Of a stretch of 64,000 nt of DNA, positions 21,081 through 54,850 are shown piece after piece. The notes below the pieces were generated by a model, which saw only the letters and a program-made list of their open reading frames with translations, was not told the origin of the DNA and ran no database searches. The stretch comes from a virus, in IMG/VR virus record IMGVR_UViG_3300029267_002792; one strand, written 5' to 3'. Both the position numbers and the translations under genes were made by a program. The first letter of the stretch is position 1. Every line of letters begins with the position of its first letter.

Positions 21081-21084
21081 CTTC

Positions 21085-23222: not shown

Positions 23223-23716
23223 TCCTCCCTCAACACAGCCAGCAACCGCTCAGCAACGTCCAGAGGAAGCATCATCCAGTCTTCCGCGTGGTTTTGCGCT
23301 TTCTCGAAGTGGAGTACCACGGTCGGGATCTTCAATCGGCGATTCGCCCCCTCGGTGACCTTCGCTAACCACACACGCTGCACCCCTATGGACTTTGTTC
23401 CAGGCTCTGCGCGCTTATGCTCGATGTGGAGATCCGGAGCCGTGATGTCCCCGCAGTCGGTAGTCGGGTCGTAGCGTGACCAAGCCATACCGCCAGAGCG
23501 TTTCAAAGCTCTACCCCCCAAGCGTTCGGCCACTTTCCGCTCCTCGCGTGTCGACCTCTTACCCCGTTCGTAATTCGGATCGAAAACCTTCGGGCGTGGC
23601 CCTACCCCGCCGTCAAAGTTGCCATCAGAACGTCGCCGTACTTTTTCTTCAGCGCCGGCTCCGCCACCATCCGCTTCAGCAGGGCAGACTTCGACTTGTA
23701 TTTCTCTCCGAGGCAT
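23219..23716 (-). CDS. PD-(D/E)xK nuclease, Hjc-like (start uncertain)
   Basis: ERKVAERLGG, GDIT..DLHIEHK, PTVVLH. Confidence 0.55.
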   Translation of the reverse strand: MPRREIQVEVCPAEADGGGAGAEEKVRRRSDGNFDGGVGPRPKVFDPNYERGKRSTREERKVAERLGGRALKRSGGMAWSRYDPTTDCGDITAPDLHIEHKRAEPGTKSIGVQRVWLAKVTEGANRRLKIPTVVLHFEKAQNHAEDWMMLPLDVAERLLAVLREE

Positions 23717-24705: not shown

Positions 24706-24710
24706 GCCTC

Positions 24711-25196
24711 CTAAAACAGGTCCGTTCCCGGCCCTCGTCGCTTTTGCAGCTCCTCAGCACGCGCCTTCCCCAGCTCAATCTGATCGAGGAGCCGCTCTGC
24801 TGCTGTCTTCACCGCGAACTTCCAGGCTGCCTCGTGTTCCTCGCGGTAGTGCGGAACGTCCACACCGACCTGGACAGATAGCGACCAAAAATTCCCCAGG
24901 TTGACTGTGTGATTCACACGGAGACTCGTTCGGGCCGGCTCGACATGGAAATCTTGAACTTGGATCTCCTCAACCTCCTCATCCGGAGACGTGACCAGGT
25001 CCCCGTCTTCTTTGTACATGCGACGGACTGTCAGGACCAGAGGTTCGGCGAGAACAGCGCCCCCCTCATCGGTCAACAGCCCCTCCATCGCCTCGCGATC
25101 CTGCTCGACCTGCCTCTCCACCGTAGGGTGGTTCTCCTCGACCGGCCTTGTTTTCATACCCCTAACCTCGCGTCCATAATTCCAAGCCTCGTCCAT
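24711..25196 (-). CDS. hypothetical protein
   Basis: 161-aa ORF in operon. Confidence 0.55.
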   Translation of the reverse strand: MDEAWNYGREVRGMKTRPVEENHPTVERQVEQDREAMEGLLTDEGGAVLAEPLVLTVRRMYKEDGDLVTSPDEEVEEIQVQDFHVEPARTSLRVNHTVNLGNFWSLSVQVGVDVPHYREEHEAAWKFAVKTAAERLLDQIELGKARAEELQKRRGPGTDLF

Positions 25197-25951
25197 CCGT
25201 CCACAATCTCATCATGGAAGTCATCCCACTCTGATCGCCCCCGAATCGTTCCCCCGCGTTTATCAAACGCGGCCTGAACGACCTCGATCATGTCCAACGT
25301 GTAGAGCCGGTACTCCAGCGCCGACAACACGAAAGGTGTTCTGGGCAGCACCCCTCGTTTCTCCATCTGTGTGATCGCAACCACCGTCCGTCCAACTGCC
25401 TTGGCAAGCGTACCTACCTTGTACAACCGCAACCGCACCGGCTCATCAACCCCCTGGAAACACACCTCCCGCTCCACATATGGAGGGCGTGCCTTCGCCC
25501 GCAGCACCCCCACATTGAGTTTTCCAGCCTTCCTCAGAGCACGCTGCACAGACTCGACCATCTCCAAGGTGTAAAGGCGATCCCCCTTTTTCGAGCGATA
25601 CGGAGTCTCGGGAAGCGTCCCGTTTTTTTCCCACACGCGAATCGTGGATATGCCCTTACCTGTAGCCTTGGCCAGAGCCCCAATGGTGAACATGCGCACC
25701 TTGACCCCGTCGACCTCGATTTCCACTGTCTTCCACGATCCAGACGCCTTCATCTTCACAGCCCCACGTGCCTCACGCTCTTCCTCATCAGCCTTCGCCC
25801 GCCGCCGCTCGCGAGCCAACTGATTCCACTTCTGAACCTTGGCCCGGTATTCCGGATCGTTCGCATAACGCTCTCGGCGGCGCTCATTCAAGTCGCCCCG
25901 GTTGCTCTCGTACCACTCCTGAAAATAACCTTGAGTTTTCCCAGCCTGCAT
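25154..25951 (-). CDS. tandem MerR-like HTH DNA-binding protein
   Basis: Two copies of (F/Y)xIG.LAKA.G....IR.WEK.G.LP...R.YT. Confidence 0.7.
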   Translation of the reverse strand: MQAGKTQGYFQEWYESNRGDLNERRRERYANDPEYRAKVQKWNQLARERRRAKADEEEREARGAVKMKASGSWKTVEIEVDGVKVRMFTIGALAKATGKGISTIRVWEKNGTLPETPYRSKKGDRLYTLEMVESVQRALRKAGKLNVGVLRAKARPPYVEREVCFQGVDEPVRLRLYKVGTLAKAVGRTVVAITQMEKRGVLPRTPFVLSALEYRLYTLDMIEVVQAAFDKRGGTIRGRSEWDDFHDEIVDGWTRLGIMDARLGV

Positions 25952-25981
25952 CCTTCACGTCTACCAAATAAGGCTCGATTG

Positions 25982-27319
25982 TCAAGTCACCTTCCGGTAG
26001 AACCGGTCTCGCTTCCTCCCCATCGCCTCGAACATGGGAACCGCGTCGTCCCGGAAATCCACAACAATTGGGTCCTTCTTCCCTCCACATGGACGCAGGA
26101 TGCGCCCCACGGCCTGCTCCACATCACTCATAGGTGTAGTCAGAAACAGCGTATCCAAAGCCGGTATGTCTAGCCCCTCGGCAGCATACTGCACCGTGGC
26201 GAAGATCACCTTTGCCTGCGCCGACCTCTCTAGCTGAGCCTTCGTGCGACCTCCCACGTACTGACCCACCGAGACCTCCCCAGCTACCGATGGCCACAGC
26301 TTCCGAATCTCCGACTCAAGACGCTGAAGATGGTTCAAGCGCTCGCTTAGCACCAGGACCTTCCTACCAGCCACCAGGGCGGAAATGAGCTGATCGACGA
26401 TCAGATCGTTTCGATACCGACTCGCGCACAGAAACCGCAGTAGCAACGAACGGGGAGCAAGATGCGGATTGAATCTGTCTGTCTTCACGAGTTTGAACTT
26501 GGACCAGACCCGCTTCACGATGGGCTTCAGACGCTCCTCTTTCCCAGCGAAAACGATCGGACCGATGTGCTGCCAGAAGACATCGTCCGCGCCGTCCTTG
26601 CGCCGGGGCGTGGCCGTAAACCCAAGGCGGTACTTCGCACGGAAACGAGGCGGTACGGGAGCCCACGTGCGTGCGCCTATTCGATGGCACTCGTCCACGA
26701 TAATGAGCCCAGGCCACCCCCAGAGTTCCTCAGGGTAGCGCTGCTCCCCACCGAGGGAGTGCACCATGCCCATAACAACCGTCTTGCCGGAAAAGTCGCA
26801 ATCGTCCTGCTGGACCCTACCGATCTTCGCAGCTGGAAGAAACTTCCCGATCCGATCGGTCCACTGATCCATCAAGAACTCTTTGTGGACCACCACGAGG
26901 GTGGGAACACCTAGCTTCGCCGCTATCGCCAGAGCGCAGACAGTTTTCCCCCAACCCGGCTTCGCCTGGACAATGCCCCCCAATCGCCCGGCCAAGAACA
27001 TGCTGACGACCTCGTCTCTGGCCACCTTCTGCTCAGGGCGGAGAGTCCCGACAAACTCCGCCGGCCACCAGTCTGACGAACCTTTAGTAACTTGCAGGTC
27101 AACTCGGTGAACCGGTCGCCTATTCGAGAAGAAGAACTCGCGTGGCACCCCAAAAACGCCGTCTCCGTGCTCGTAAAGCGGAATGGGCTTCGGGTCCTCG
27201 CCAGGGTAGTCGCCGACCTTCTGGGGGTAGACCGTGAGCATACTTTCCATGTTCACGATCTGGTGCGGAGTCAGCTCCGACTTCGGCAACCACGCCCACC
27301 CATCCACGCGCACATCCAC
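25982..27319 (-). CDS. superfamily 2 helicase (UvsW/XPB-like)
   Basis: PGWGKT, IVDECH, GFTATP, AEGLDIP, EQAVGRILR. Confidence 0.9.
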   Translation of the reverse strand: MDVRVDGWAWLPKSELTPHQIVNMESMLTVYPQKVGDYPGEDPKPIPLYEHGDGVFGVPREFFFSNRRPVHRVDLQVTKGSSDWWPAEFVGTLRPEQKVARDEVVSMFLAGRLGGIVQAKPGWGKTVCALAIAAKLGVPTLVVVHKEFLMDQWTDRIGKFLPAAKIGRVQQDDCDFSGKTVVMGMVHSLGGEQRYPEELWGWPGLIIVDECHRIGARTWAPVPPRFRAKYRLGFTATPRRKDGADDVFWQHIGPIVFAGKEERLKPIVKRVWSKFKLVKTDRFNPHLAPRSLLLRFLCASRYRNDLIVDQLISALVAGRKVLVLSERLNHLQRLESEIRKLWPSVAGEVSVGQYVGGRTKAQLERSAQAKVIFATVQYAAEGLDIPALDTLFLTTPMSDVEQAVGRILRPCGGKKDPIVVDFRDDAVPMFEAMGRKRDRFYRKVT

Positions 27320-27320
27320 A

Positions 27321-27560
27321 TCAGCCTCCTGAAATGAACCGTCCCCGTGCCTGTTTCAGCTCCTGAGTACGTTGGTATCGCACTTCACCGACAACTGACT
27401 CGTACCAGTTCTCCGGGGGTGCCCTCATCGTTCCTTGGGCTTGCCATGTGAGATCAATCAGGCGCCGCCGATTGGACACCAGGTCGTGCACAGCAACTTC
27501 CATCCGACACTTCCCGAAGTGGAACCTGACAAACAAGAGCTGTAGTGGCTTACGACCCAT
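27321..27560 (-). CDS. hypothetical protein
   Basis: 79-aa ORF in operon. Confidence 0.45.
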   Translation of the reverse strand: MGRKPLQLLFVRFHFGKCRMEVAVHDLVSNRRRLIDLTWQAQGTMRAPPENWYESVVGEVRYQRTQELKQARGRFISGG

Positions 27561-27693
27561 GACACCCCTGCGTACAATGGACGTACTACCACGGCTTCGC
27601 CCGGCCGCGGCTGAGGTCGCCCCTCAATTCTACGCTAGCCTGCTGCTCACGCGCGCTCCCAGCAAGCCCTCGACCTCTGCCCAAACTCTAAGA

Positions 27694-28485
27694 TCAGAAG
27701 GGGACGTCCTCCTCACGCGCAGCGCCCTTGCCCGACGACCTCGGGGCCTTCGAGCCCTTGTCGTCGTCATCCTCCTGCACGCCGCTGAGGAGCAACCGGA
27801 GTTCCTTCGGAGGCTTCGGCTTCAAAGTCTCGAAGTAGTTGAATGGGGGTATGACCCTCGGCAGCGTTCCGTCCTCATTCGGCTTGATCTGGAACGCGCG
27901 CTGCAAGCGAGCCATGGCCTCCGGGTCGTTCTCAGCCGCCTCCCAGAGTTCGCTCAGCTTGGACCCGCGATAGCACACGAAATCGAACATTTTGTCCATG
28001 TTCGCATCACGCACGAAGTCCCAATCGTCGCCAATGTTGGCCGCGTTGTCGTCCTCACGGGTGAGGCGCCACATGGTTCCAACCAGAGAACCACGATCGT
28101 CCTTCTTCCGACGGAACTTCTTCAAGGACCGCAGCTTCATCGGCACCAGCCGCATTTCGTACTGGTGCATGTTCCCGCGCTGATCCTTCCACTCCGAGCA
28201 GTCGACCGCAGTCACGTACCCAACGTAGTAGCGACTCTTAGGCCCGAGCCGTTGGCAGCACACGACCTCATCGTAAACTCCCTGAAGACACGTCATCCAG
28301 TTGCGGTAGGTGCCGTTCATCTTCGGGTTGTGCTCGTGGATACAAACAGGCTCGTCATCAACCCAGACCACGTCCTTGGAACCTCCCCCAGGCATCCACA
28401 ACCGGTGCGGACCCTGAGCCTCATCGAGGCGGCGTTCCTCCTCGTTGATCCCATCAAACCCTTGTTCGTACCATCCTCCACTCAT
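27694..28485 (-). CDS. putative gp32-like phage ssDNA-binding protein
   Basis: HEH...C...CC cluster, aromatic core, acidic EEDVPF tail. Confidence 0.55.
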   Translation of the reverse strand: MSGGWYEQGFDGINEEERRLDEAQGPHRLWMPGGGSKDVVWVDDEPVCIHEHNPKMNGTYRNWMTCLQGVYDEVVCCQRLGPKSRYYVGYVTAVDCSEWKDQRGNMHQYEMRLVPMKLRSLKKFRRKKDDRGSLVGTMWRLTREDDNAANIGDDWDFVRDANMDKMFDFVCYRGSKLSELWEAAENDPEAMARLQRAFQIKPNEDGTLPRVIPPFNYFETLKPKPPKELRLLLSGVQEDDDDKGSKAPRSSGKGAAREEDVPF

Positions 28486-28538
28486 CTTGCTCTCCTCTCG
28501 ATCACGCGATCGTTTACTTGGCCACCCGGCCTATACCA

Positions 28539-29156
28539 TCAAAAGGGATGACTCTCAGGCACTCCGTCACCCTTCGCCCCTTTGACTACGACTTCACCCG
28601 TATTGGGATCGTACTTATCCCCGGTCTTGGGGTCCTCGACGAGACCCGAAGTGTCAACCTGGGAGCTGGCTTCCGCTCCGTTCCCGCCCCCGGAGTTTTC
28701 ATCCGCCTCGGCGTCCGCCATGTTAGCGTCCGCCAGCCTTCCAGCCTCCTCGAAGTCTCGATCTGCGGTGTCCTTCGCCGTGGACGGCTCGCCACCAGGC
28801 GTGGACTTCTCCGCCGGAGCCGCCTCGGTGTACTCCTCGGTGGGAGCAGGGGCCTCTTCCTTCTTCTTCGAGGTACGCTTCTTGGCTACACGCCGGGACT
28901 TCTTCGCCCCCTTCCCCTCCCCGCGCAGCTTCATGAGCAGGTTAGCCACCACCTCTTGACACTTCGGGCAGATGTCCTCGAACGAGAACAGGACGGTGAA
29001 CTTCGGCCCCTCATCCTTGCTTGTTCCGGACGTCTCCGTCACGACAAGGCCCTTCTGCTTGAAGGCCGGCACCTCGTCGCCCGATTTCAGGTACTTCTCT
29101 TGGAACGGTTTCAGGCAGCGGTCGCACTGCTGGATAGAATTAGTCCGAATCGTCAT
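28539..29156 (-). CDS. hypothetical Zn-binding protein with acidic tail
   Basis: CDRC...CPKC. Confidence 0.5.
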   Translation of the reverse strand: MTIRTNSIQQCDRCLKPFQEKYLKSGDEVPAFKQKGLVVTETSGTSKDEGPKFTVLFSFEDICPKCQEVVANLLMKLRGEGKGAKKSRRVAKKRTSKKKEEAPAPTEEYTEAAPAEKSTPGGEPSTAKDTADRDFEEAGRLADANMADAEADENSGGGNGAEASSQVDTSGLVEDPKTGDKYDPNTGEVVVKGAKGDGVPESHPF

Positions 29157-29204
29157 CTCTCACCTCCCGGCCCACGGCCGTCAAATGCCCTCAAGGCACC
29201 CAGA

Positions 29205-29233
29205 AAACTACCCGGTACCTCAGGAATTGTCAA
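29205..29233 (-). promoter_or_regulatory. sigma70-like promoter
   Basis: TTGACA-N17-TAGTTT. Confidence 0.45.
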
Positions 29234-30372
29234 GCAGTATTTAGGGGTCCCAAACGCTTCCGGAGATCAGCCGGTGTTAGGGTGTCGGCATCCCTCTTGT
29301 TCGGCATGTCAACAACGTTGATTCGCTCGATACGACGCACCTTACCCTGACCATCATCGAAAGATAGGTCTTGAAGCGTTCTGCGGTCGCGTTCCGCGGC
29401 GTCTCGCCCAGCCTTGTCCCCATCCGGAACGATGACCAGGTGATCAAACCATTGCACCAGCTTCTTTGCCTGGTGATTACTAAGATGCGTACCCATCCGG
29501 GCCAAAGTGTTTGCGTACCCGCACTGCCACGAATAGATGGCTTGGAAGAATCCCTCGAACAGGTAGCCAGTTCGGTTGTGTGTATCCCGCAGGTGCTCAC
29601 CGTACAACACCCGATCGCGCTTGAACCGGCTGTGCAAGTACTTTGGAGGCTGCCGCTTCCCGCACTCTAGGCAGTCTTTCCCGTTCTGTGGAAGGGACAC
29701 CCGACAATAAGCGCATACGCTGTCATCGAAGACCCGACCGCTGATCGCCACGAGTTTTCCATCCTCGTCCCTGATCGGGATGCACACCCGTTGATCCCTC
29801 TGATGCCACCCAAGTTCCCACGTCACCACCGCCTGCTTTGTGAGCCCCCGACCAGGCGTCCCGTGAATAGGGTCATCCGGCCGAGTTAGATACCTGAGCA
29901 CGTGAACCGGCATGTCCGCGACCATCTTAGCCAGGACTGATTCCGGCACTTCTGCCTGAGGCTCGTCATCGGGATGAACAAATGTACTCACCCGGTGCGG
30001 ATTGGGAACGTACTTGACCCTGCAACGGGTCGCCCCCTTTGCAAGGGGAATCGGACGAGGGGTGTCATCGATCTTCTCATAGGCCAGCTGATTGTGCCGG
30101 CTCAAGAAAGCAAGAAGGTCTGGTCTCGACCCCCGACGGTCTGCCTCCAGACGCCACACGAGCGGAACGAGAGGCCCATAAATCCCACACGCCAGGCACC
30201 GACAGTTGCTTTCGTCTCCCGGATCAATCGAGATGGCGAATGACGGCTGCCCGTCCTTGCCGCCACTGTGGCGATGGTCCATCGGGCACGTCGATCGCAC
30301 CCACTTAGACCCGACCGAAATCTTATGGCACCCCATCGCCTTCAGAAATTTACGAATCGCACCAACATCCAT
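29230..30372 (-). CDS. DnaG-like primase
   Basis: Zn finger CP..H...C.AC, GRVF, PKYLHS, TOPRIM LFEGFF...VPDGDKAG. Confidence 0.85.
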   Translation of the reverse strand: MDVGAIRKFLKAMGCHKISVGSKWVRSTCPMDHRHSGGKDGQPSFAISIDPGDESNCRCLACGIYGPLVPLVWRLEADRRGSRPDLLAFLSRHNQLAYEKIDDTPRPIPLAKGATRCRVKYVPNPHRVSTFVHPDDEPQAEVPESVLAKMVADMPVHVLRYLTRPDDPIHGTPGRGLTKQAVVTWELGWHQRDQRVCIPIRDEDGKLVAISGRVFDDSVCAYCRVSLPQNGKDCLECGKRQPPKYLHSRFKRDRVLYGEHLRDTHNRTGYLFEGFFQAIYSWQCGYANTLARMGTHLSNHQAKKLVQWFDHLVIVPDGDKAGRDAAERDRRTLQDLSFDDGQGKVRRIERINVVDMPNKRDADTLTPADLRKRLGPLNTA

Positions 30373-30375
30373 GCC

Positions 30376-30837
30376 TCACCGTCGCTTTGCCCGCTTTGCC
30401 CTGCTCACACGCTTCGGGCGTCTAGTCGCGGAAGATCGCGCCACCTTCGCCTGACGACGCCGTGCCTGTTGCCGGCGCCCTTCACGCGCGTCCAGCATCA
30501 CAGCCTCCGCCTCTTGTGACGTGCTTCCCGCACCCTCGTCCTCTTCGGCTTCCTCCTGGATCAACTTATACAGGGCGTTCCACTCCTGAGTCTTGAGAAT
30601 CGCCCCCTTCTCACGGCGATGCCGCGACTCCGCTTTCTGCCCCTTCGCCTTGAGTTTGATCTTCTCGGGAGCCACCTTCCCAGAGTCCTTCCACAAAAAC
30701 CCGTACTCGATCAGCCGCCGAACCGCGATGTCCAGAGCCTGCTGAACTCGCTGCACCTGCGTTCCGGAGCAGTACCCGGACTTGTAGATCGCTAGAGCAC
30801 AGTGCTTCACCAAAACCGGCATTTGCTTCGCAGGCAT
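30376..30837 (-). CDS. basic hypothetical protein
   Basis: 153-aa ORF between helicase and primase. Confidence 0.5.
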   Translation of the reverse strand: MPAKQMPVLVKHCALAIYKSGYCSGTQVQRVQQALDIAVRRLIEYGFLWKDSGKVAPEKIKLKAKGQKAESRHRREKGAILKTQEWNALYKLIQEEAEEDEGAGSTSQEAEAVMLDAREGRRQQARRRQAKVARSSATRRPKRVSRAKRAKRR

Positions 30838-32213
30838 CAGAAAGGCACGTCTTTCGTGTCGTCACTGCCGCCAAACAGCAGGCCCGCACCATAGGGGTCC
30901 GGGTCAGGTCCCGAACCCGGAGCCGCTCCCGAGCCCGCACCCCCGCCCGACGATCCAACCGCACCTCCTGCACCAGAAGCCCCTAACGCCGCCATAGCCC
31001 CCTTCGGCAACTCATCGAAGTTCATGGTGTCGAAGTCCCAATGGGTCTCAACCTCTTCACCCAACCCTTCCCGGAACTTCAAAGGGAGCTGGACCATCCG
31101 CTTGTCGCGTACCATGTCATCAGTCCGCATCAAACCAAATATGAGGTCCGCATTCCAGCCAGCAGCATCCGACAGAGCGATCTTCTCAGGACCCGCCGAA
31201 GAAAGCTTGCTCCCCTTCACCTCGCGGTTGAACTGGGTGGAGGCGACCAGAGGTATATGGTTCCGCTTGGCCATCCGCTTCAGCTCATCGAACGAATTGG
31301 CCGCGCGCTCGGTCCTCCCATCACCAGGCACCTTGAGTAGGTACGCACCGTCGAGGAAAACGATGTCCGGCTCGGATTCCTCGATAGCCGCCTCCAGCGA
31401 CTCAACGCGAAAATCGAAGTCGCCTCCGATGATGTACAGACCCTCCGCCGATACCACCTCATCAATCCACTCCATCATCTTCTGCTTGACGAAGCTACCA
31501 AGCCGCGCACGCCGAAGCTCGTTGTAGGGGTACTTCTTGTGCACCGACACCCAGCGCTGGAGGATTTTCTGCCGGCCCATCTCAGTCGTGACGAACAGCA
31601 CCCGCCGCTTCTGAACCGCCCAGGCATGATCAGCGAGGATGATAAGAGTCCAGCTCTTCCCCACCCCGAGTCGCGCAACGTACAGCACAAAGTCTTCCGG
31701 CCAGAACCCGAGCGTAGCCTCATTCACCGTCGGCCACGGCGTAAGAATTCCCGTCTCACCTGCCTCCAGACGTTCGTAGTACGCCAAAAATTCCGGCAGT
31801 AGCGAAGGCAGGCTGACCGTCTTGGAAACTCCTATCCCGAGGCGCCTCAGCTCCCGAACGCTATCCTCGAACTGAGCGTAAGCAGCATGAGGCTGACTGG
31901 CGTTGTAGAGTGCATCGATTCGTCCGAGCTGAGTCCCGACAGCATTGTGCAACCGATCGTTCAGGACCTCGTCGATCCACACCTCAGCAGGAACATTAGC
32001 TGGAGGCGACGGAAGCATAACCCCCGTCTTGCTCTCAACCATCGCGGCATCGGGGGTGGTCTGGTACTTACTCACGTAGTCGAGAACGAACACCCACGCC
32101 CTCAACCCCTTACCCTTCAGGCAGTCGCCATCGACCCCCTTCTCAGCCGCCCGGCGAACAGCCGGGAGTCCCTCAGCCAGCACACTGGCAACAAAGATCG
32201 TATTCAGATCCAC
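30837..32213 (-). CDS. dnaB: DnaB-like replicative helicase
   Basis: ARLGVGKS, FVTTEM, VFLDGAYL, STQFNR, LKFREG. Confidence 0.88.
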   Translation of the reverse strand: MDLNTIFVASVLAEGLPAVRRAAEKGVDGDCLKGKGLRAWVFVLDYVSKYQTTPDAAMVESKTGVMLPSPPANVPAEVWIDEVLNDRLHNAVGTQLGRIDALYNASQPHAAYAQFEDSVRELRRLGIGVSKTVSLPSLLPEFLAYYERLEAGETGILTPWPTVNEATLGFWPEDFVLYVARLGVGKSWTLIILADHAWAVQKRRVLFVTTEMGRQKILQRWVSVHKKYPYNELRRARLGSFVKQKMMEWIDEVVSAEGLYIIGGDFDFRVESLEAAIEESEPDIVFLDGAYLLKVPGDGRTERAANSFDELKRMAKRNHIPLVASTQFNREVKGSKLSSAGPEKIALSDAAGWNADLIFGLMRTDDMVRDKRMVQLPLKFREGLGEEVETHWDFDTMNFDELPKGAMAALGASGAGGAVGSSGGGAGSGAAPGSGPDPDPYGAGLLFGGSDDTKDVPF

Positions 32214-32234
32214 GCCCCGCTCCCGTCTACGCCG

Positions 32235-32900
32235 TCAGGTTCCGAGAACCGCTTCTCTCAACGCTCGCTTCTTTCGGTCGTGTAAGTTCGGCCCCGACAC
32301 CTTGAACAAGAGCAGAACATCCAACAGCGACTCCATCGGGTTGTCCTCCAGCGCCCCTTTGTCGAGCCGCGTCGTTACGATCGTTACCCGCCTCCGTGAC
32401 GCTCGATACCGCACCAACTCGATAATCTCCGACAAGGTGAAGAACTTCTCACTCGCGTCCTCCGACCGTAGATCGTCTAAGACAAGCACATCAACCTCGC
32501 GTGCTCGCTCAGCCATGGAGGAGTCCATGTCGTACTCCATGCGACAGCGGATCATCTCCCGCAGCTCCCACAACCGCACGAATAGCACCGTGCTCCCGCG
32601 AGCCCTCGCTTCCTTAGCTATCAGAGCCGCGATGGCCGTTTTCCCCACCCCCTCCGACCCGTAAACAACAAGGCCGGCCCCCCTAGCCACCGCCGCATCG
32701 AGATTCAGAAGGTAGGTCTTGACCTGAGGAAGAGAATCCTTGCTGACGTACTGCAACTTCGACGTCCAGAGATCCTCCGGAATGTTCATCCGCTCCAAGT
32801 CCACACGGTTGAGAAACCGGCGCCCACAGCTGGGGCACGACGTCCCCCGATCCCACTTCGTATGGCAACACGGACACTCAAACCGAGTCGTTTCGGTCAT
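32235..32900 (-). CDS. DnaC/IstB-like helicase loader ATPase
   Basis: Zn ribbon, GSEGVGKT, VLVLDDL, TIVTT. Confidence 0.8.
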   Translation of the reverse strand: MTETTRFECPCCHTKWDRGTSCPSCGRRFLNRVDLERMNIPEDLWTSKLQYVSKDSLPQVKTYLLNLDAAVARGAGLVVYGSEGVGKTAIAALIAKEARARGSTVLFVRLWELREMIRCRMEYDMDSSMAERAREVDVLVLDDLRSEDASEKFFTLSEIIELVRYRASRRRVTIVTTRLDKGALEDNPMESLLDVLLLFKVSGPNLHDRKKRALREAVLGT

Positions 32901-32918
32901 ACCAACCTCCAGGCGCCG

Positions 32919-34442
32919 TCAGCTCCCGAGCCCGAAAGCTTCCAACGCCGCCTTCGCCTTCTTGTACCGCGCCCGCAGCTCCGACGGTGGACGTTCGTCA
33001 TCGTTTTCGTGATCACGCATCCAAGACTTCCACTCCTCCACGACTCCGCGGTGCTCCCCCCACAGAGCAGCTTCGCGGAACAGCGACTCGTGCATGTGAG
33101 AGATCAGCCCGAAGTTGGGCACGTTGCCCGTCCGCTTGAAGTATTTCTGGTTTATCGAATCCCAGTTCTCGAGTGTGTACTGGACTGCTCCGATTGTCGC
33201 GTCCGTGCCATACATGTCCACAAGGCGGTACACCTGACCCCGCGCCTTCGCGTTCCCCGAGGCATTCCAACGGACCACCGGTAGCCGCGAGTCCCGCTCT
33301 TTGAGCAGCTCGGCGTAGACCTTCCACACCTCTCGACCGCCCTGAATAACCTCGTACGAGTACTGGGTCCCACCCTTCAAGTTCTCGCGGCGCTGCGCGT
33401 TCGCATCGGAAGCTTCCATCTGCCCGGTACGGCCCGCTATCAGCCTCTCCTGGCATTCCTGAACCTGGGCGCGACGTTCTCGACGCTTGTTGTTCTTGTC
33501 ATTCTGCACGTCCGCCTTCTGAGCCCCCACCTTCCCGGCCTCCTGAGCACGAGCAAAGCGCTCGTCCCCATCTTGCCCGGAGTCAAGAGCATTGTCAAGA
33601 GCAGACGTGGTTATTCCCTCTTCTACTTCGTCCGTGTTTGTTTCACCAAGTTCGTTTTTGTTCTTGGTATCGTTTCCATATTGTCTTTTGTTCTTGGAAC
33701 TTGGACGTCCAGAAACGTTAGCGTCCGAAGGGTCGGCCATGAGCTTGGGCTGGGGGCCTGATATATGCTCCGGGGGCTCGCCCCCGGTATATTCCTCGGA
33801 CTTATCTATTCCACTCCCCGAAGGGTTATCTATTATCAAGTGCCCCTGTGGCACTACTCCCCCCTCCACTAGTGCCACTGTGGCACTAGGGTAGTGCCTC
33901 TGTGGCACTACCCCGGGCGCTGTCGTGTAGATGCTGGGAATCAGTACGGACCGGTCGCTGCGGTTCAACCACTCCCGGGCCAGCCTAGCTCGGTCGAGCA
34001 CGGGAAGCTTCGACACAGTGGTCTCCTGCTGCTCAGCCAGGTCGGTAAGGTGGTTGCAGAACTCTCTACAGTCCACATCGGCGTAGAAGACCTCCAGGCC
34101 GCCGGGAAGAACGTACCCGAGCTGGAACACAAGCGCCTCGCCAGAGCCGTGGCCATTCTCGGCTCGAATCCACCCAATGCTGCGGAGGTAGTTGATGCGG
34201 CGCTGGACCGTTCTCACGGAGAGTCCCAGGGAATGGGCAATCGTGGTCCGGCAGAGACTGGCGGAGAGGTCGCCACTCTTCGCGGCGTCTCTGAGCTTGC
34301 GAGAGCCCTGAACTCGCGACCGCCAGACGTGCGTTCGTATCTCCTCGTAGATACGCTCTGTGTCCACTCCGAGCGCGGCGGTCATCTTCGACCTGTAGAA
34401 CGCCAAATCCTTGAGCAAGAAACTTTCAGACCCTCCGCGCAT
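32919..34442 (-). CDS. putative replication initiator (N-terminal HTH)
   Basis: IAHSLGLSVRTVQRRINYLRSIGWI; upstream of loader and helicase as in O/P-type modules. Confidence 0.6.
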   Translation of the reverse strand: MRGGSESFLLKDLAFYRSKMTAALGVDTERIYEEIRTHVWRSRVQGSRKLRDAAKSGDLSASLCRTTIAHSLGLSVRTVQRRINYLRSIGWIRAENGHGSGEALVFQLGYVLPGGLEVFYADVDCREFCNHLTDLAEQQETTVSKLPVLDRARLAREWLNRSDRSVLIPSIYTTAPGVVPQRHYPSATVALVEGGVVPQGHLIIDNPSGSGIDKSEEYTGGEPPEHISGPQPKLMADPSDANVSGRPSSKNKRQYGNDTKNKNELGETNTDEVEEGITTSALDNALDSGQDGDERFARAQEAGKVGAQKADVQNDKNNKRRERRAQVQECQERLIAGRTGQMEASDANAQRRENLKGGTQYSYEVIQGGREVWKVYAELLKERDSRLPVVRWNASGNAKARGQVYRLVDMYGTDATIGAVQYTLENWDSINQKYFKRTGNVPNFGLISHMHESLFREAALWGEHRGVVEEWKSWMRDHENDDERPPSELRARYKKAKAALEAFGLGS

Positions 34443-34881
34443 TGCGCTCCTCCTCGATCTCGTTCAACCAATTCTTGGCCGCGGCGACGCGGTGCGTCGT
34501 CGATTCCACACCTACCAACTTCCGGTGGAGCCTCAAGTAGGACTCGTAACCGTAAAAGACGTCCCCTCCACCAGCGCTCTGAAACCCCAGCTCGAACCCC
34601 TCCCCACGCCCCCGCAGCCAGCCCCAACGCATGAGCTTCAGCAGCGCGTCTTCGACCTTTCGGACGCTTACGCCGATGGACATCGCAATCTCATCCAGGT
34701 CTACGGTGGAGACGAACCGAACGACGCCCTCTTCCGGAATCCGTTCTGCGTGGTGTAGCAGCTGCTCCAGCACGGCCTTCGGAACGATCCCGGTCGCACA
34801 CGTAGCGTCCATGGCCGCACAGTGCACGAATACGTTCCCCTCGAAGTCAGTGATCACGGACGACCACCTTCCTTTCGGCAC
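34426..34881 (-). CDS. winged-HTH protein resembling the initiator N-terminus
   Basis: IAMSIGVSVRKVEDALLKLMRWGWL...FELG...GG.VFY parallels the neighbour. Confidence 0.55.
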   Translation of the reverse strand: MPKGRWSSVITDFEGNVFVHCAAMDATCATGIVPKAVLEQLLHHAERIPEEGVVRFVSTVDLDEIAMSIGVSVRKVEDALLKLMRWGWLRGRGEGFELGFQSAGGGDVFYGYESYLRLHRKLVGVESTTHRVAAAKNWLNEIEEERNARRV

Positions 34882-34889
34882 ACTCTTTG

Positions 34890-35028
34890 TGAAAAAAGAG
34901 CGAGCCCGCTAGGAGGCCCAACGAGAACCAGGGGCGCTAACCGAGTGACGTCGGCGCTGAGGAGCGCCGTTGGGCGAGGCTTGCGCCTACGCCAACCCTG
35001 GAACCCGTACTCCTAGCGGGCTCGCTTC
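34890..35028 (-). ncRNA. structured leader RNA upstream of replication genes
   Basis: 17-bp perfect inverted repeat AGCGAGCCCGCTAGGAG/CTCCTAGCGGGCTCGCT enclosing hairpins, then T6. Confidence 0.6.
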
Positions 35029-35147
35029 AAGAGGTACAATATCACATAGCGGCAGATCGGTTAGCATTTTCTTCCCCGTGCCCCTGGTTCAGTAGTTGGG
35101 CGTCCACCAAACCAGCGGACTGATGATGCTCTACTCGGATCGCGGGG

Positions 35148-36212
35148 TCAAGAGTTTTCGCCCTCGTCACCTTCCGGGGCGATTGCCGTCACCGTCAGCT
35201 GGGTTTCAGCAGGCCCCTGGAGACTCGGGAACCCCATCTCAATGCAGACGGGATCGATATCGTCCGGGCACCCTCGGCGACCCGGACGGCACCAGAACGC
35301 GTTCAGAGTCCCCGCATTCTGGATTCTGGCTAGGCCGCGGGCGCAGGCGATGCGGTCGTCGCACGAGGCTTTCCCCGACTCGCAACGTCCTCCCCACGTG
35401 ATCGGCCTACCTGGCAACCATCGGACGCGAGCACCCGGCCTCGACTCTGGTAGCTCGCCTGCGATGAGCCTGCGGGCGTCTGCCACTGTCTGGGGGCACA
35501 CCTTAGTTCCGTAGTGGGAGTTCCACCGGTCCTCAGAGTGCGGGTATCCTTCAGGGCGCGTGCAGTCGGTAGTGAGATTTCGCACCCACGCTGCGCGCCT
35601 GTTGTGGGCCTTGATCATGCCCAAAGCATGTCGCTGAGATCGGCGCAGCGCGGACAGCATGGTTTCTCCGTCCTCGTCACACTCGGTGATGCGTTGCAGA
35701 TGGGGTGTGTCTCGATCGCAGGTCCTCCTCCGGATGTTGCTGACTGTCTGCCAGATACCAACACAGTCTTGGGGTCGACCATCTGCCTCGGCGATGCACA
35801 CACGCAGCAGGGCCGTCAAGAGAGCCTCATCCGATTCCTCGTCCGGTACGTTCCATATCCTCCCCCGGGCATCAGCTGGACTCTCCCACTGGAACCTACG
35901 CACCCGCCGTCTCTTCGGCGGGGGAGCTTTTGCAGCCTCCTCTTCCATCGTCTGGACGCGAGCTTCTGCTTCTGCCTCGAGTCTCTCCCAACGCTCAGCA
36001 CGCGCGCGGTCCCGCTCGTCCCAATAGCGATCAGGGTCGTCGTACTGAGGAGCCGGAGTCTCTATCGGGTCTCCGATCCTCTCCTCCGCCTCGGCGAAGT
36101 CGCAGGAAGACAGAGAGAACGCTACTGACGCTCCTACTGCCATGGCAGCGAGGGCTGCCCCCGCCACCACAACCTTCCTGAATCCGGTAAATGCACTACG
36201 CCAAGTAGCCAT
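35148..36212 (-). CDS. membrane-anchored protein, possible SleB-like cell-wall hydrolase
   Basis: Hydrophobic signal ending LSSC; LLRVCIAEADG...VGIWQTVSN resembles Hydrolase_2. Confidence 0.4.
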   Translation of the reverse strand: MATWRSAFTGFRKVVVAGAALAAMAVGASVAFSLSSCDFAEAEERIGDPIETPAPQYDDPDRYWDERDRARAERWERLEAEAEARVQTMEEEAAKAPPPKRRRVRRFQWESPADARGRIWNVPDEESDEALLTALLRVCIAEADGRPQDCVGIWQTVSNIRRRTCDRDTPHLQRITECDEDGETMLSALRRSQRHALGMIKAHNRRAAWVRNLTTDCTRPEGYPHSEDRWNSHYGTKVCPQTVADARRLIAGELPESRPGARVRWLPGRPITWGGRCESGKASCDDRIACARGLARIQNAGTLNAFWCRPGRRGCPDDIDPVCIEMGFPSLQGPAETQLTVTAIAPEGDEGENS

Positions 36213-36333
36213 GGGGCTACCTCCTTTCTGAGCCCGGCACACCGGGGTCAGAGCTACACGATGTACGGGGTGAGATCGGTGTGCAGAGCTTCAATCACGG
36301 CCTGGAAACATAGCACAGGCCACCCCGATCTTG

Positions 36334-36663
36334 CTACTCACCTGGAACCTTCTCCGCCGCCTCTATCGCCTTCCCCAGGGCTTCAAACGCTTGGTCTAGG
36401 TTGTCTTGGTCAGCGTGTCTACTCCACAGGCGGTAGACCTTGCGAGCCTCGCGAGCGACCGAGCTGCTCAGTTCCTCGTCGTCACTGATGGAGGCCCAAG
36501 CTTCTAGTGTCGGTCGCAACTCGCGGGCAAGGAACGCAATCGAATCGTCTACCCATTCGTCCGTGACGTGCATTCCGTCCGGGCGAGTGCCTGTTTTCAC
36601 GTAGTGTTCGATTTCGACCAGTCGGATCGTGTTTGCTTTGCTGAGCCCGCGAAGCGTTTTCAT
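36334..36663 (-). CDS. hypothetical protein
   Basis: 109-aa ORF. Confidence 0.5.
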   Translation of the reverse strand: MKTLRGLSKANTIRLVEIEHYVKTGTRPDGMHVTDEWVDDSIAFLARELRPTLEAWASISDDEELSSSVAREARKVYRLWSRHADQDNLDQAFEALGKAIEAAEKVPGE

Positions 36664-37095
36664 CCGCCCCTTCTACCACATACCACGGGGATGGTCAATA
36701 CCCGCATGTAGAGGTAGAAGTCGTGGGCGGAGTCACATAGAAGTACACAAGGTTCGTTCCAGCGCTCCAGGTACTCGAGACGTCGATCGATGCCCGAGGT
36801 CGGCTGCGGCGGTGCGGCTCCGCAAACCTTCCCACGGGTCGGCCCTCCTTCTTGAACTCCTCCAACCACCTCAACCAGCACAAGGCCTCGGGGTTCCACT
36901 CCCCGTAGCTCGGAGGAAGAGCAGGGCGAAACACTCTCGACTTGAGCTGAGTTCGGGCGCGAACGTTGTGAGTAAGCCGAACCGGAGGTCTAGGAGATCG
37001 GTATTGGGTTCGCCTGTCGGTGAAGTTTTTTAGTCCTCGTACGTGCGACATCTGCGTCTAATATACGCTACCCAGAAACGAGAACACCATCAAAC

Positions 37096-37365
37096 AGGTC
37101 CATCCTCGCGCGTGCGGGAGAACCGCCTGAAGCGGAGAAGATCGCCCTGGTCCATCCTCACGCCTCACGCGTGCGGGGAACCGGGCACTGTAGCAGACTC
37201 CGCTCTCACAGCACCGGTCCATCCTCACGCGTGCGGGAGAACCACACGCCCGTGCGGAACTTCGAGGAGCGCGACGGGTCCATCCCCACGCGTGTGGGGG
37301 AACCTCACCGCCGATGATGTACAGGCCCTCGGAGGACGGTCCATCCCCACGCGTGTGGGGGAACC
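37096..37365 (-). CRISPR. Cas-less type I-E-like array: 5 repeats, 4 spacers
   Basis: 29-nt palindromic repeat GGTTCCCCCACACGCGTGGGGATGGACCG; three 32-nt spacers and one 24-nt; decays toward the left. Confidence 0.92.
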
Positions 37366-37370
37366 CCTGT

Positions 37371-37481
37371 GCCACGCTGAGCCGAAAAAAAACGGTTCTC
37401 CTCCACACACATGAGTTCCTCGTTCGAGACGAGGCAAGAACACCGCGCTCTCACGCAGTGCCACCGACTGGAATATCGGCA
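37371..37481 (-). repeat. CRISPR leader copy 1, identical inverted copy at 53819-53929
   Basis: 111-bp identity checked base by base. Confidence 0.9.
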
Positions 37482-37498
37482 AGCGGTGGTATTGTCAA
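37470..37498 (-). promoter_or_regulatory. promoter for CRISPR array 1
   Basis: TTGACA-N17-TATTCC. Confidence 0.55.
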
Positions 37499-37512
37499 CT
37501 ATTTTTTAGGCT

Positions 37513-37983
37513 TCAGAACAGGTCTTCTGTCGTGCCGATCTGAGGGGACGTTTCCCGATCTCGGGCGAACGGAGACTTCCGAATGACTTCCAAGGCTGAC
37601 GAAGAAGTGCTCACGACGTAGACCCGCACGTTGGTGGTGTGCTCGGAGTGGCTGCCGAGGAAGACCTTCAACCCCAGCGGTCCAAAAGGGCCGGCAATTC
37701 CATCCTCGCCGTCCACGAAGAAGACCTTGACCCGTCGCGTGGCGTCGTACTCGCTCGGATCTGTGACGTAAGGCTTTCCCGTCTTTTTATCCGTCCGGAT
37801 ACGACTTGCGACAGATCTATAAAGCAGCTCCAGGACTTCCAGGGGCACAATCCAGTCGGACGGGTCCGGAATCCCTAATGTCCCTGCCAGCCGAACTTTG
37901 GTGGGTTTGTCACAGCAGGGGCAGCGACCCACTGAGCCTTCGTAGATCAACCTTTCCTTGAAACGAGCTTTGGACTTCGACAT
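37513..37983 (-). CDS. hypothetical protein with CPCC motif
   Basis: Start trimmed to MSKSK. Confidence 0.5.
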   Translation of the reverse strand: MSKSKARFKERLIYEGSVGRCPCCDKPTKVRLAGTLGIPDPSDWIVPLEVLELLYRSVASRIRTDKKTGKPYVTDPSEYDATRRVKVFFVDGEDGIAGPFGPLGLKVFLGSHSEHTTNVRVYVVSTSSSALEVIRKSPFARDRETSPQIGTTEDLF

Positions 37984-38045
37984 CTCCACTCTCTGACTCA
38001 AAGGAGCTTTAGATTCCAGTATCGCCCATCGAACCCGAGCTACCA

Positions 38046-39959
38046 TCAGCCTCCCCGCAGGTAGCTAACGAAGGCTCCCGTCACGAGCTGCACCAGATCG
38101 TGCCCGAATGTCTGATCCTTCATGATGCGCCAATTTCGAGGAGGCCCGAACATCTTGCCCATCTCTTTCGCGCCTACGTCGCTCCCGATCAGGACTCCCG
38201 TCACTCCGATGCCTTTGCGCCTTGCGTTCTGGATGTTCATCCGAACAAACGACATGAGCGCTCGGGTACCGTACTGCGCACCATCGTTCCGGACGAATAT
38301 CGGGAATCCGTCGGATATGACAAACAAGTGCTTTCGATCTGTGCCATCCTCCAGGTCTTTCAAGGCAACGCGAATGGCGGTGTGAAGAGGTGTCGTGCCC
38401 CCAACCCTGGAAGTGGCTGACTCGAAGACCTCCTGTCGGGGGCGAAATCGGGTGATGTCGACCTGCCCATCTTTCAAAGACTGAAATCCCCATACCCGGC
38501 TGGTGACGAACGGAAAGTCCAGCGCCCGGGAGATGATTCGACAAGCTCTCTCAGCCTGAGCGGTCCGGCGCCCTTGCATAGAGGACGATCGGTCTACTAG
38601 TACCAGCGTCCGGAAGCCTCGGCCAAAAGAGTCGACAGCGAAGACTGGAAGAGGTTCGCCCGTCATACGACGAGTGATGTAGGCGGGGACGTCTAGCCGT
38701 GTTCCAGCGTCCTCGAGAGTGTTGATTCGGCGCCCCAGAACACGGTGGAACATGGCTCGGAGCCTCTTCACGGTGTTCTCGTCCTCGTCGTTTAGGAGCG
38801 AGCTATCAGAACGTGGCCCGGATGGTTCCACGTCGGTGAAGACCACCTTGGCATAGCCCTCATGGCGAATGCGATCGTCGTGATTGAACGCGTTCTTAGT
38901 CGCATTTCGGGCCTTGTCCACGAGGCGAAGCATCTGGGCCGAGGAGGCATCGAGAATGTCTTCGAGCTTGCTCGCGTTTTTCACGTTGGCCGTAATGGCA
39001 GCCTGAGCCCGCCTGTCGGCAGCTGCTTCCTCTCCGCGTTTTTTGTACTTCGACTCTCCAACCTCGCTGGAGATGTCAGATGGAGCCTTTCCAAGACGAT
39101 TGATCGCGTCCTGAAGGGCCTGGGATCGCTCTTTTAGCCCGGCATCAACCTCGGGAGGCTCCCAGGTTTCGTCAGGATGGTCCTCAGACGGCTCTTGCGG
39201 GTTGCTGCCCTCTCCGGCCTGCTGCTCGTCCTCGTCCCCTGACGCCCCATCAGAGCCGCTCCCGAGCTGCGGGGCAGGTCCGGGCGGAGGGTCCTCCCCT
39301 CGCGATTCTCGGATAATTTCCGACACCAGCTGTACTACGAGCCACTTCGCCGCTACCAAGCACCCGAAGTAGTCCCGGAAGCGTACCTTCCTCAGGGCTT
39401 CCTCCATGTAGGGCACGAAGCGGTCAAGCTTCCCGGGGGGTATCGGGTTGCCGCTCGCAACGCAGATGAACAGGGACAGAAAGTCTTGGTGAGCCAGGTT
39501 CAGGTGTGCGGCCGACTCCTCCCGTTTCATACGGCGCATGATGGCCCCGGAGCCACGGTAGAGCAGGCCCCAGAGGGAGATGACGCGCTCGTCATCAAGG
39601 ACGCCAACGATACCTTCCAAACCCGCCCTCAGCATGCGCTCGTTGATGGTGAGGTGAGCCTTTTTGGCGACCTGCCCGATCTTCCTGGAGTACTCCTCGA
39701 TGAACTTCTGCTTCGCTAGGAAATCCGACTGGAACAGGATGTGGGAGATCTCGTGCTCACAGTACTGGTACGCCCGCGGGTGTTGGAAGGGCACTTCAAT
39801 CAGGTACCCGTTGGTTCTCGCCACCCCGTCCTGGGAGTTCTTGAGCCAGAGACGTCGCTTCAGGATGCCAGAGAACACGTCTACGGTTTTGTAGCACATG
39901 GCTTTGGGGGACGAGTCCACCTCAACATTGATGAGTGCATCCACGTCGATGGTCGACAT
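38046..39959 (-). CDS. CobT/NorD-like VWA protein with N-terminal HExxH-like domain
   Basis: Start MSTIDV after GGAGG; HEISH; MIDAS DRSSSM, GGTTPL, VISDG. Confidence 0.8.
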   Translation of the reverse strand: MSTIDVDALINVEVDSSPKAMCYKTVDVFSGILKRRLWLKNSQDGVARTNGYLIEVPFQHPRAYQYCEHEISHILFQSDFLAKQKFIEEYSRKIGQVAKKAHLTINERMLRAGLEGIVGVLDDERVISLWGLLYRGSGAIMRRMKREESAAHLNLAHQDFLSLFICVASGNPIPPGKLDRFVPYMEEALRKVRFRDYFGCLVAAKWLVVQLVSEIIRESRGEDPPPGPAPQLGSGSDGASGDEDEQQAGEGSNPQEPSEDHPDETWEPPEVDAGLKERSQALQDAINRLGKAPSDISSEVGESKYKKRGEEAAADRRAQAAITANVKNASKLEDILDASSAQMLRLVDKARNATKNAFNHDDRIRHEGYAKVVFTDVEPSGPRSDSSLLNDEDENTVKRLRAMFHRVLGRRINTLEDAGTRLDVPAYITRRMTGEPLPVFAVDSFGRGFRTLVLVDRSSSMQGRRTAQAERACRIISRALDFPFVTSRVWGFQSLKDGQVDITRFRPRQEVFESATSRVGGTTPLHTAIRVALKDLEDGTDRKHLFVISDGFPIFVRNDGAQYGTRALMSFVRMNIQNARRKGIGVTGVLIGSDVGAKEMGKMFGPPRNWRIMKDQTFGHDLVQLVTGAFVSYLRGG

Positions 39960-39967
39960 GGGACCTC

Positions 39968-40798
39968 CTATTTGATTGTGGCACCGAAGATGGACGCGAC
40001 ACGAGTCTTGAAGAAATCTCGGTCCTGACCCTCGAACTTGCCGGCGGCGAGTCGTAGCGCTGATTCCACACCGCAGGCTTCGGCATCCTCGATGATTTGA
40101 ACCGTGTCGCGCGGGGACAGGGAGTACTCCAGGTTCCGCTGCCGGGTCTCGTGCGCTAGCGTGAGAACGTCTTTGAGGAGGGCCTCCTTGGCCCACTTCC
40201 CAGCGACAGCCTTCAGGATGCGTGTCTCGTCGCCCTTGCTCGGATAACCGACGGCCAGCATCCGAAACCGCGATTTCAAGTCCTCGTTCAGGGTGTAGAC
40301 CCCGCCGTAGACAGACGTGTTCATGGTGCCACAGAGCCAGAGATTGGCCCCCTCTTTCAGCTCGAACACGCGCTGACACTCCGGGACTTCGATGCGCCGC
40401 CGATAATCCCCGATCGAATTGAGCATCTTCTGAACGGCCGGCGTTAGGGCATTGATCTCTTCCAGGCAGAGAATGCAGTGCCCGACCTCGTTGGCCACCT
40501 CGATAGCCGTTGGCAGCGGTCCCATCACATACGGGCTCTCGTGCCCTCGCAAGGTGAATAGCCCGAGCAAGTGGGACCTGCGCACGTCCTCGGAGCAGTC
40601 GAAAGTGATGATCGGGTGCTTGTGCTGCCCGGCCCACGAGGCGATGGACAGTGTTTTGGCTACCCCCTTCGGCCCGACCAGGATGAGGTTGGCTTTGAAC
40701 GCTACAGCTTCAAACAGCGGGTGCAGATCGAAGACGTCCTCGTATATCAAGTCCGTCTTCGGGGCGAAGGCGTCCGATGGTAGCCGCTCAACGATCAT
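39968..40798 (-). CDS. MoxR/CobS-like AAA+ ATPase
   Basis: GPKGVAKT, LCLEEIN, GTMN, DLKSRF. Confidence 0.85.
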   Translation of the reverse strand: MIVERLPSDAFAPKTDLIYEDVFDLHPLFEAVAFKANLILVGPKGVAKTLSIASWAGQHKHPIITFDCSEDVRRSHLLGLFTLRGHESPYVMGPLPTAIEVANEVGHCILCLEEINALTPAVQKMLNSIGDYRRRIEVPECQRVFELKEGANLWLCGTMNTSVYGGVYTLNEDLKSRFRMLAVGYPSKGDETRILKAVAGKWAKEALLKDVLTLAHETRQRNLEYSLSPRDTVQIIEDAEACGVESALRLAAGKFEGQDRDFFKTRVASIFGATIK

Positions 40799-53818: not shown

Positions 53819-53929
53819 TGCCGATATTCCAGTCGGTGGCACTGCGTGAGAGCGCGGTGTTCTTGCCTCGTCTCGAACGAGGAACTCATGTGTGTGGAGG
53901 AGAACCGTTTTTTTTCGGCTCAGCGTGGC
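53819..53929 (+). repeat. CRISPR leader copy 2
   Basis: Exact reverse complement of 37371-37481. Confidence 0.9.
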
Positions 53930-54010
53930 GCACGCGCGGGGATGGACCGGAGTACACGATGGACCAGAGATTTGCAGAGCAGGTTCCCCCGCACGCGTGG
54001 GGATGGTCTT
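53930..54010 (+). CRISPR. single-spacer mini-array
   Basis: 5'-truncated repeat GCACGCGCGGGGATGGACCG, 32-nt spacer, repeat GGTTCCCCCGCACGCGTGGGGATGGTCTT. Confidence 0.82.
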
Positions 54011-54437: not shown

Positions 54438-54509
54438 GGGTCGCTAGCTCAATTGGCAGAGCAGCAGGCTTTTACCCTGAAGGTTCCCGGATCGTTGCCG
54501 GGGCGGCCC
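54438..54509 (+). tRNA. tRNA-Lys(UUU), atypical T arm
   Basis: GCAGG-CTTTTAC-CCTGA; T loop ATCGTTG. Confidence 0.65.
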
Positions 54510-54692: not shown

Positions 54693-54698
54693 CTGCAG

Positions 54699-54771: not shown

Positions 54772-54775
54772 CGAT

Positions 54776-54848: not shown

Positions 54849-54850
54849 CC

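Follow-up and report, generated by a model that had tools for sequence, protein, structure and literature searches.

Cas-less CRISPR arrays carried by viruses and used in interviral conflict have been described as mini-CRISPR arrays in the Saccharolobus portogloboviruses SPV1 and SPV2 (Medvedeva et al., 2019, PMC6858448), and virus-borne mini-arrays have been both surveyed and modeled (Iranzo et al., 2020, PMC7099407). Huge phages also contain CRISPR arrays without interference or adaptation genes, whose repeats are shared with those of their hosts (Al-Shayeb et al., 2020, PMC7162821). RNA anti-CRISPRs (Racrs) constitute a further, related class (Camara-Wilpert et al., 2023, PMC10651486). In Escherichia coli type I-E CRISPR, the seed was defined as crRNA positions 1-5 and 7-8, every sixth base is flipped out and more than 18 bp of PAM-proximal pairing are needed (Cooper et al., 2018, PMC5904413). 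The best-supported mechanism for the locus described here would be one that is already known, in which virus-borne, cas-less arrays arm the CRISPR system of the host against competitors.

The DNA analyzed, hereafter the window, is a stretch of 64,000 nt with a G+C content of 59%. It is phage DNA, as indicated by genes for a portal protein, DNA polymerase, DnaB, primase, RecA, RuvC and SSB and by 36 tRNAs. The replication module comprises an HTH initiator, a DnaC-like ATPase, DnaB and primase, with RecA, RuvC and SSB encoded close by. Within DnaB, residues 155-400 contain the RecA-type ATPase domain (66.5 bits; cut-off, 27). Collinearity with the IMG/VR phage contig G002 (184,744 bp) extends over positions 1-54000, with 50-86% identity at the protein level. 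Proteins identical to those of the window were found on a 193,864-bp JGI contig, and also on ENA and Logan contigs, and the phage genome is therefore estimated at approximately 194 kb. Samples that contain the phage are JGI 3300029258, ENA ERZ27256770 and ERZ27256778, and SRR6963311. The part outside the window was reached partially via these public contigs, which added 51 kb, so that about 115 kb could be read in all. The coordinates of the features discussed below are collected in Table 1.

Table 1. Features of the window that bear on array A and on the dnaB match of its first spacer.
Feature	Position	Strand	Basis or remark
dnaB-like replicative helicase gene, 458 aa	30837..32213	-	Pfam DnaB_C (PF03796), E 3e-18; homologs
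dnaB EKIAL-motif site against S4 plus preceding A	31174..31197	+ (opposite strand)	17/24, ambiguous
Self site in dnaB matching S1	31420..31451	-	26/32; GTA upstream at 31452-31454
Array A, four spacers between five type I-E-like repeats	37097..37365	-	Repeats 25-26/29 identical to arrays adjoining Cas7e genes
Repeats of array A	R1 37365-37338, R2 37304-37277, R3 37243-37216, R4 37182-37149, R5 37124-37097	-	
Spacer S1, leader-proximal, 32 nt	37305..37336	-	Encodes SSEGLYIIGG in frame 0
Array A leader	37366..37481	-	37371-37481 100% identical, inverted, to array B leader
Array B: leader copy 53819-53929, half repeat 53930-49, one spacer 53950-81, terminal degenerate repeat 53982-54009	53819..54009	+	

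Several further observations were made on the phage genome. The tRNA genes are located at positions 54438-63535 and cover nearly every amino acid, while G002 carries 42 tRNAs. A Ro60-like gene (59646-61445; phrog_850, with PF25045 vWA_Ro60 on a public contig) is interleaved among them. The portal match is limited to residues 659-937 of a 1032-aa ORF (3179-6277, minus strand) whose N-terminal part is weakly helicase-like; this ORF may represent a fusion or a large portal variant.

In array A, R1 and R2 are exactly identical and both can form a perfect 6-bp hairpin, which is followed by ATGGACC. R3-R5, in contrast, are degenerate and have substitutions in common, and R4 carries a 7-nt duplication. 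The identity of the first two repeats next to this decay indicates recent spacer acquisition in situ, as far as can be judged from the array itself. The repeat-to-repeat distance, measured from start to start, is 61 for R1-R2-R3, and the same 61-bp period is found in the other seven arrays of the phage. Base 37337 (G), situated just before S1, is the variable last base of the repeat, and the fourth spacer (S4) is shortened to 23 nt. An earlier note on this DNA had placed S1 next to the leader, which is correct, and had counted five spacers; four of these belong to array A and one to a second, shortened array (53930-54009). Among the repeat copies, the hairpin pair 10-17 varies between G-C, G-T and A-T, so that pairing is kept. 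A promoter scan at array A yielded no sigma-70 promoter that passed, and an Rfam search returned nothing.

The phage repeats can be assigned to the type I-E family, with 25-28 of 28 bases identical to arrays located 3-7 kb from Cas7e in four bacterial genomes. R1 of array A is identical to I-E arrays at 25-26 of 29 bases and the repeats of arrays D, F and G at 28 of 28. A scan of 185,579 species genomes identified arrays with 24-26 of 29 bases identical to the phage repeat, while the exact R1 repeat was absent from this collection. Five genomes were checked, and four of them have a Cas7e gene (PF09344, E of approximately 1e-92 to 1e-99) 3-7 kb away from such an array. Cas7e was used for this purpose, as a search for Cse1 (PF09481) gave no matches and a control showed the model to be insensitive. 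One Acidobacteriota MAG (G006) has an I-E repeat with 28/28 identity to arrays D, F and G, and its spacers do not match window positions 20001-40000. The same holds for the spacers of all five nearest-repeat genomes, and in the reverse comparison 23 of the 34 phage spacers (array A and arrays F-H) matched none of these five genomes. As a separate observation, a lone I-E-like repeat was found just after a gene on an unrelated viral contig (IMG/VR 3300008113_001556; L008:9979-10001). It consists of the hairpin CCCCGCG..CGCGGGG plus ATGGACCG and may be a solitary repeat unit.

A tblastn comparison of all ORFs from two I-E cas loci with the window gave array-translation artefacts and no cas homolog, and the called genes in the 51 kb beyond the window contain no Cas Pfam family other than TnpB. 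Consequently, Cas6e, Cascade, Cas3 and Cas1-Cas2 would have to be supplied by a host system.

In total, the phage carries eight arrays (A-H) with 34 spacers, 33 of which are unique. Six of these arrays (C-H) lie to the right of the window and contain one to eight spacers each (L082:6961-9902; L084:4879-8617). All eight are preceded by structured, GC-rich leaders of one family, in which a conserved hairpin carrying an AUUCCA loop occurs together with two other hairpins and with a segment partly complementary to the start of the repeat. Repeat 1 is preceded by a T run that varies and by a GGCTCAG..GGCACAGG box that is conserved. The ends of the complementary segment (GAACC/AAACC) co-vary with the repeat starts (GGTTC/GGTTT), and overall the segment aligns to the repeat almost equally well in direct orientation. 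The candidate host arrays have short, AT-rich leaders that do not resemble those of the phage, and recognition of the phage leaders by host Cas1-Cas2 is therefore not assured.

The leader copies of arrays A (37371-37481, minus strand) and B (53819-53929, plus strand) form a perfect 111-bp inverted repeat around 16.3 kb of DNA, and the orientation in the window matches that of the collinear relative G002. A 109-kb ENA megahit contig begins exactly inside this inverted repeat, and the JGI contig stops inside R1 of array A. Array B differs between strains. In the sister (JGI) strain it comprises three spacers after an intact first repeat, together with a TTGACA promoter element (L076:7663-7873), whereas in the strain of the window a deletion of approximately 136 bp joins the leader to the third repeat, the -35 element is missing and one spacer is left. 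Arrays thus turn over between strains. G002 itself has no array and carries an unrelated ORF at the place of array A; arrays or leaders were looked for in the relatives of the phage and none were found.

Between arrays G and H, and on the same strand, lies a gene for a 473-aa TnpB (L084:6629-8050) with OrfB_IS605 and Cas12f1-like_TNB domains, and the array H leader overlaps the 3' end of this gene. The region upstream of tnpB matches G002 over 35 nt; this match was considered as a spacer hit and rejected, as it represents a shared promoter-like motif (TTGCCATTGACAT, about 13 nt, GCTCTGCTAT) common to L084:6469-6503 and G002:55051-55085.

The composition of the arrays provides information on how they were built. 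The base preceding the 34 spacers is G in 15 cases, C in 15, T in three and A in one. The spacers have a G+C content of 62% and a three-base phase periodicity of 0.369, compared with 0.258 in shuffles and above all 200 shuffles, from which it follows that they derive from coding DNA. Together, the upstream-base bias, the coding periodicity, the turnover between strains and the array-less G002 indicate that real I-E-type acquisition has taken place into arrays resident in the phage.

S1 is the spacer for which a relationship to phage DNA is clearest. The earlier note had reported that it matches the dnaB gene of the phage itself at 26 of 32 positions, and this was reproduced (S1, 37336-37305; dnaB, 31451-31420), with the site located within the gene that carries the Pfam DnaB_C match. 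The mismatches fall at crRNA positions 3, 4, 6, 12, 27 and 30, the trinucleotide upstream of the self site is GTA, and the in-frame translations are SSEGLYIIGG for S1 and SAEGLYIIGG for dnaB, all as had been stated. Most of the differences were said to lie at third codon positions, and indeed five of the six do (hypergeometric P = 0.006). A chance origin of the match was rejected, as none of 300 composition-preserving shuffles of S1 exceeded 23 of 32; the second-best match of S1 in the window reaches 20 of 32. An in-frame match with wobble mismatches implies homologous coding DNA. An antisense effect of S1 on the dnaB message is excluded, as spacer and mRNA are of the same sense.

How close the source of S1 stands to this phage is a different matter. 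The stretch EGLYIIGGDFDFR is the most conserved of the DnaB family, while the two codons preceding it vary freely. The homologous 32-mer was taken from 13 family members, namely the window, five IMG/VR contigs and seven JGI metagenome contigs, whose DnaB proteins are 60-69% identical. Pairwise sharing at this 32-mer ranges from 22 to 32 of 32 with a mean of 25.9; the gene of the window shares 23-27 positions with the other members and S1 shares 20-26. With a family mean of 25.9, a value of 26 of 32 corresponds to the family background expected from plain divergence. The S1 match can therefore be taken to reflect homology, and the closeness of the source is not demonstrated by it. Of the earlier proposal that the spacer targets the helicase of a competing related phage, the part that stands is an origin of S1 in a homologous dnaB outside this genome; a close relative as source is not shown, given the family mean. 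More generally, an imperfect spacer match to a gene of the carrier, if it falls on an ultra-conserved motif, says little about the closeness of the source.

A near-perfect match in a dnaB homolog had been expected from a search with the spacers, and this expectation was disappointed in INPHARED, IMG/VR and the JGI contigs. Blastn of S1 against INPHARED gave no match, and neither exact S1 nor the codon pattern for SSEGLYIIGG was present in IMG/VR, where the six DnaB relatives share 20-24 of 32 positions with S1. A codon-degenerate motif scan of JGI metagenome contigs identified ten loci, the best of which matches at 25 of 32, below the phage's own gene. The sole homolog with Ser-Ser before the motif (SSDGLYIIGG) was set aside, as it reaches merely 23 of 32 at the DNA level, and the second member of the DnaB 90% cluster proved to be the same protein with V written at its GTG start. 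Among 5.8 billion protein clusters, the nearest DnaB besides that of the phage is 68% identical. The earlier note had named the lack of a closer match in any related phage as an outcome that would speak against its proposal, and formally this is what was found; the argument is weak, as the collections lack any DnaB closer than 68%. The search for a protospacer thus weakens the claim that S1 targets a rival without overturning it, the databases being thin around this phage.

The remaining spacers offer few clues. Of the 33 unique spacers, S1 is the only one with a clear self-match (at least 24 of 32) in the approximately 115 kb of phage genome read. When the others were compared with the 185-kb relative and further relatives, none reached 24 of 32 apart from one match of S2 in G002, which was attributed to chance, as such a match is seen in 1% of shuffles before correction for multiple tests and the mismatches show no codon structure. 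With S2, S3 and the array B spacer, wobble-degenerate or exact scans of IMG/VR were empty, and no peptide-level matches were obtained. S4 matches the EKIAL motif of dnaB at 17-19 of 24 positions across the family. Its status as a second dnaB-derived spacer was downgraded to ambiguous, as an intergenic phage site (L082:19105-19127) matches it equally well at 19 of 23, with 14 contiguous bases. Among the 33 unique spacers, a link to the phage family can be drawn for S1 and, ambiguously, for S4 only. With relatives at approximately 50-86% protein identity, only spacers from ultra-conserved motifs would be recognizable, and the silence of the other spacers is uninformative on their targets. At the level of the sequences compared, the lack of matches to relatives means that the spacers were not copied from very close kin.

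With respect to the phage's own dnaB, S1 has mismatches at positions 3, 4 and 27 and at the sixth positions 6, 12 and 30. Under the rules established for E. coli type I-E, only the mismatches at 3, 4 and 27 count; the PAM and the tolerance of seed mismatches may differ in the system that would load this crRNA. By the same rules, the mismatches at 3 and 4 would be expected to prevent an R-loop from forming on the dnaB of the phage itself. In addition, the base upstream of the own site is A, the rare one (one of 34 spacers), as opposed to the G or C found in 30 of 34. It had been suggested that this genome escapes through seed and PAM changes. The mismatches at positions 3 and 4 and the atypical upstream base would spare the own gene; an adaptive escape is unsupported, as plain divergence suffices. 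On the substitution pattern seen, the sparing of the own dnaB is ordinary divergence between homologs and carries no escape signature.

Taken together, we consider it somewhat probable that the phage carries cas-less arrays that use the I-E machinery of the host against competing phages. S1 would then be the newest spacer of the phage's own type I-E-type array. In this model, host Cas1-Cas2 in a cell with a type I-E system would insert a 33-nt dnaB fragment of another phage of the family, thereby duplicating the first repeat of array A. The array would be transcribed from its own leader, and host Cas6e would release a crRNA composed of the AUGGACCG handle, S1 and the repeat hairpin. Host Cascade-Cas3 could subsequently destroy incoming phages with a matching dnaB, resulting in CRISPR-mediated exclusion of competitors, while the dnaB of the carrier would be spared by the seed mismatches 3 and 4 and an upstream A instead of the usual G or C. 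Counting against this reading are the lack of a near-perfect protospacer in all collections searched, with the best relative at 25 of 32, and the state of array A, where three of five repeats are degenerate and no sigma-70 promoter passed.

Part of this evidence would equally suit arrays that function as decoys or sponges, in which phage repeat RNAs occupy host Cas6e or Cascade, the spacers are a by-product and S1 merely records a past co-infection by a related phage. Eight arrays with a leader each would yield many repeat transcripts, 31 of 33 spacers have no identifiable target, array B is cut down to half a repeat plus one unit in the window, and the degenerate repeats of array A point in the same direction; moreover, Racrs are documented (PMC10651486), and competitive exclusion is discussed by Iranzo et al. 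(PMC7099407). A pure decoy, however, needs neither an exactly kept 61-bp unit nor diverse spacers from coding DNA nor differences between strains, and the known Racrs are solitary repeats without spacers, which leaves this explanation rather unlikely. The distal decay of array A would also fit neutral cargo, as expected if the array were a captured piece of a host array, acquired for example by spacer-protospacer recombination, and S1 a host memory that is useless to the phage. Phage repeats identical or nearly identical to bacterial I-E repeats agree with such a capture, and a host spacer directed against this family would naturally resemble the dnaB of the phage. Nevertheless, the eight arrays share a GC-rich leader family unlike the candidate host leaders, the leader was duplicated inside the phage (111 bp identical between arrays A and B), the collinear relative has another gene at the site of array A, and identical first-repeat pairs in several arrays point to acquisition after residence in the phage. 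Host-array capture is thus disfavored by a phage-specific leader family that multiplied within the phage, and we regard it as distinctly unlikely.

The position of tnpB raises the question of whether the guides are used by the TnpB of the phage and not by host Cascade, with a leader that pairs with the repeat and provides an omega-RNA or tracrRNA-like scaffold. The placement of the gene between arrays G and H on the same strand, the overlap of leader H with its 3' end and the co-varying complementarity between segment ends and repeat starts are compatible with this arrangement. It is nonetheless very improbable, as the repeat forms the hairpin that is standard for Cas6e and has the I-E periodicity, tens of kilobases separate array A from tnpB, and the antisense alignment of the putative anti-repeat barely exceeds the direct one, the repeat being palindromic, and is weak in four of the eight leaders. 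Almost as improbable is a phage-autonomous hybrid, in which host I-E adaptation would write all 33 spacers and the structured leader, with its three hairpins and repeat-complementary segment, would deliver crRNAs to the phage TnpB. The least probable of all the explanations is that S1 was taken from the phage's own dnaB and that this gene subsequently changed so as to avoid self-targeting. No better match than the own gene was found, and the differences at -1, 3 and 4 do fall in PAM and seed. A single mutation would have been enough for escape, yet S1 and the own dnaB disagree at six of the 11 wobble sites (position -1 to 32), which equals the divergence of family members with 60-69% identity. 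The flanking repeats gained no difference in the meantime, and the DnaB protein of the sister strain is identical. That six wobble sites differ although R1 and R2 are still the same excludes this phage, or a recent ancestor of it, as the origin of S1.

If host-assisted exclusion of competitors is the correct reading, the locus would add a bacterial type I-E case, in a soil- or sediment-type phage of approximately 194 kb, to the few documented viruses that turn host CRISPR on other viruses, and it would show that a single phage of this kind is able to maintain eight arrays with 33 unique spacers. The wider locus, with its phage-specific leader family, turnover at the strain level and a TnpB within the array cluster, is more unusual than S1 alone.

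Like the E. coli type I-E system (Cooper et al., 2018), the locus has units of 29+32 nt, an 8-nt 5' handle ending in CCG and a last repeat base that depends on the spacer; unlike there, 30 of the 34 spacers are preceded by G or C and not by G alone. A likeness to Racrs exists in that phage-encoded CRISPR repeat mimics could be bound by Cas6 or Cas7 of the host, and in that array B is here nearly a solitary unit. Array A differs from the solitary, guide-less Racr repeats by its five repeats, four spacers, leader and signs of acquisition. With the huge phages (Al-Shayeb et al., 2020) the phage shares its size of approximately 194 kb, many tRNAs, compact arrays, the lack of cas1, cas2 or an effector gene in the parts examined, and one spacer from a core replication gene of another phage. 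Their spacers could be linked to targets at 0-3 mismatches, for which there is no counterpart here, and the link to a host relies in the present case solely on repeat identity to one Acidobacteriota MAG. Shared with SPV1 and SPV2 (Medvedeva et al., 2019) is an array in a viral genome with no cas gene in the parts examined and with repeats of a cellular CRISPR type. In both cases, moreover, the functional-looking part is one leader-proximal unit, with a spacer derived from a related virus's gene and mismatched to the copy of the carrier. Their arrays are archaeal and type I-A/I-B-like, whereas the present one is bacterial and of type I-E; no near-identical target virus is known for it, and its spacer source is kin at the family level only. 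Finally, in place of the one or two spacers of the portogloboviruses, the phage described here keeps eight arrays with 33 unique spacers, and its leaders form a structured family of its own and are not copies of host leaders.
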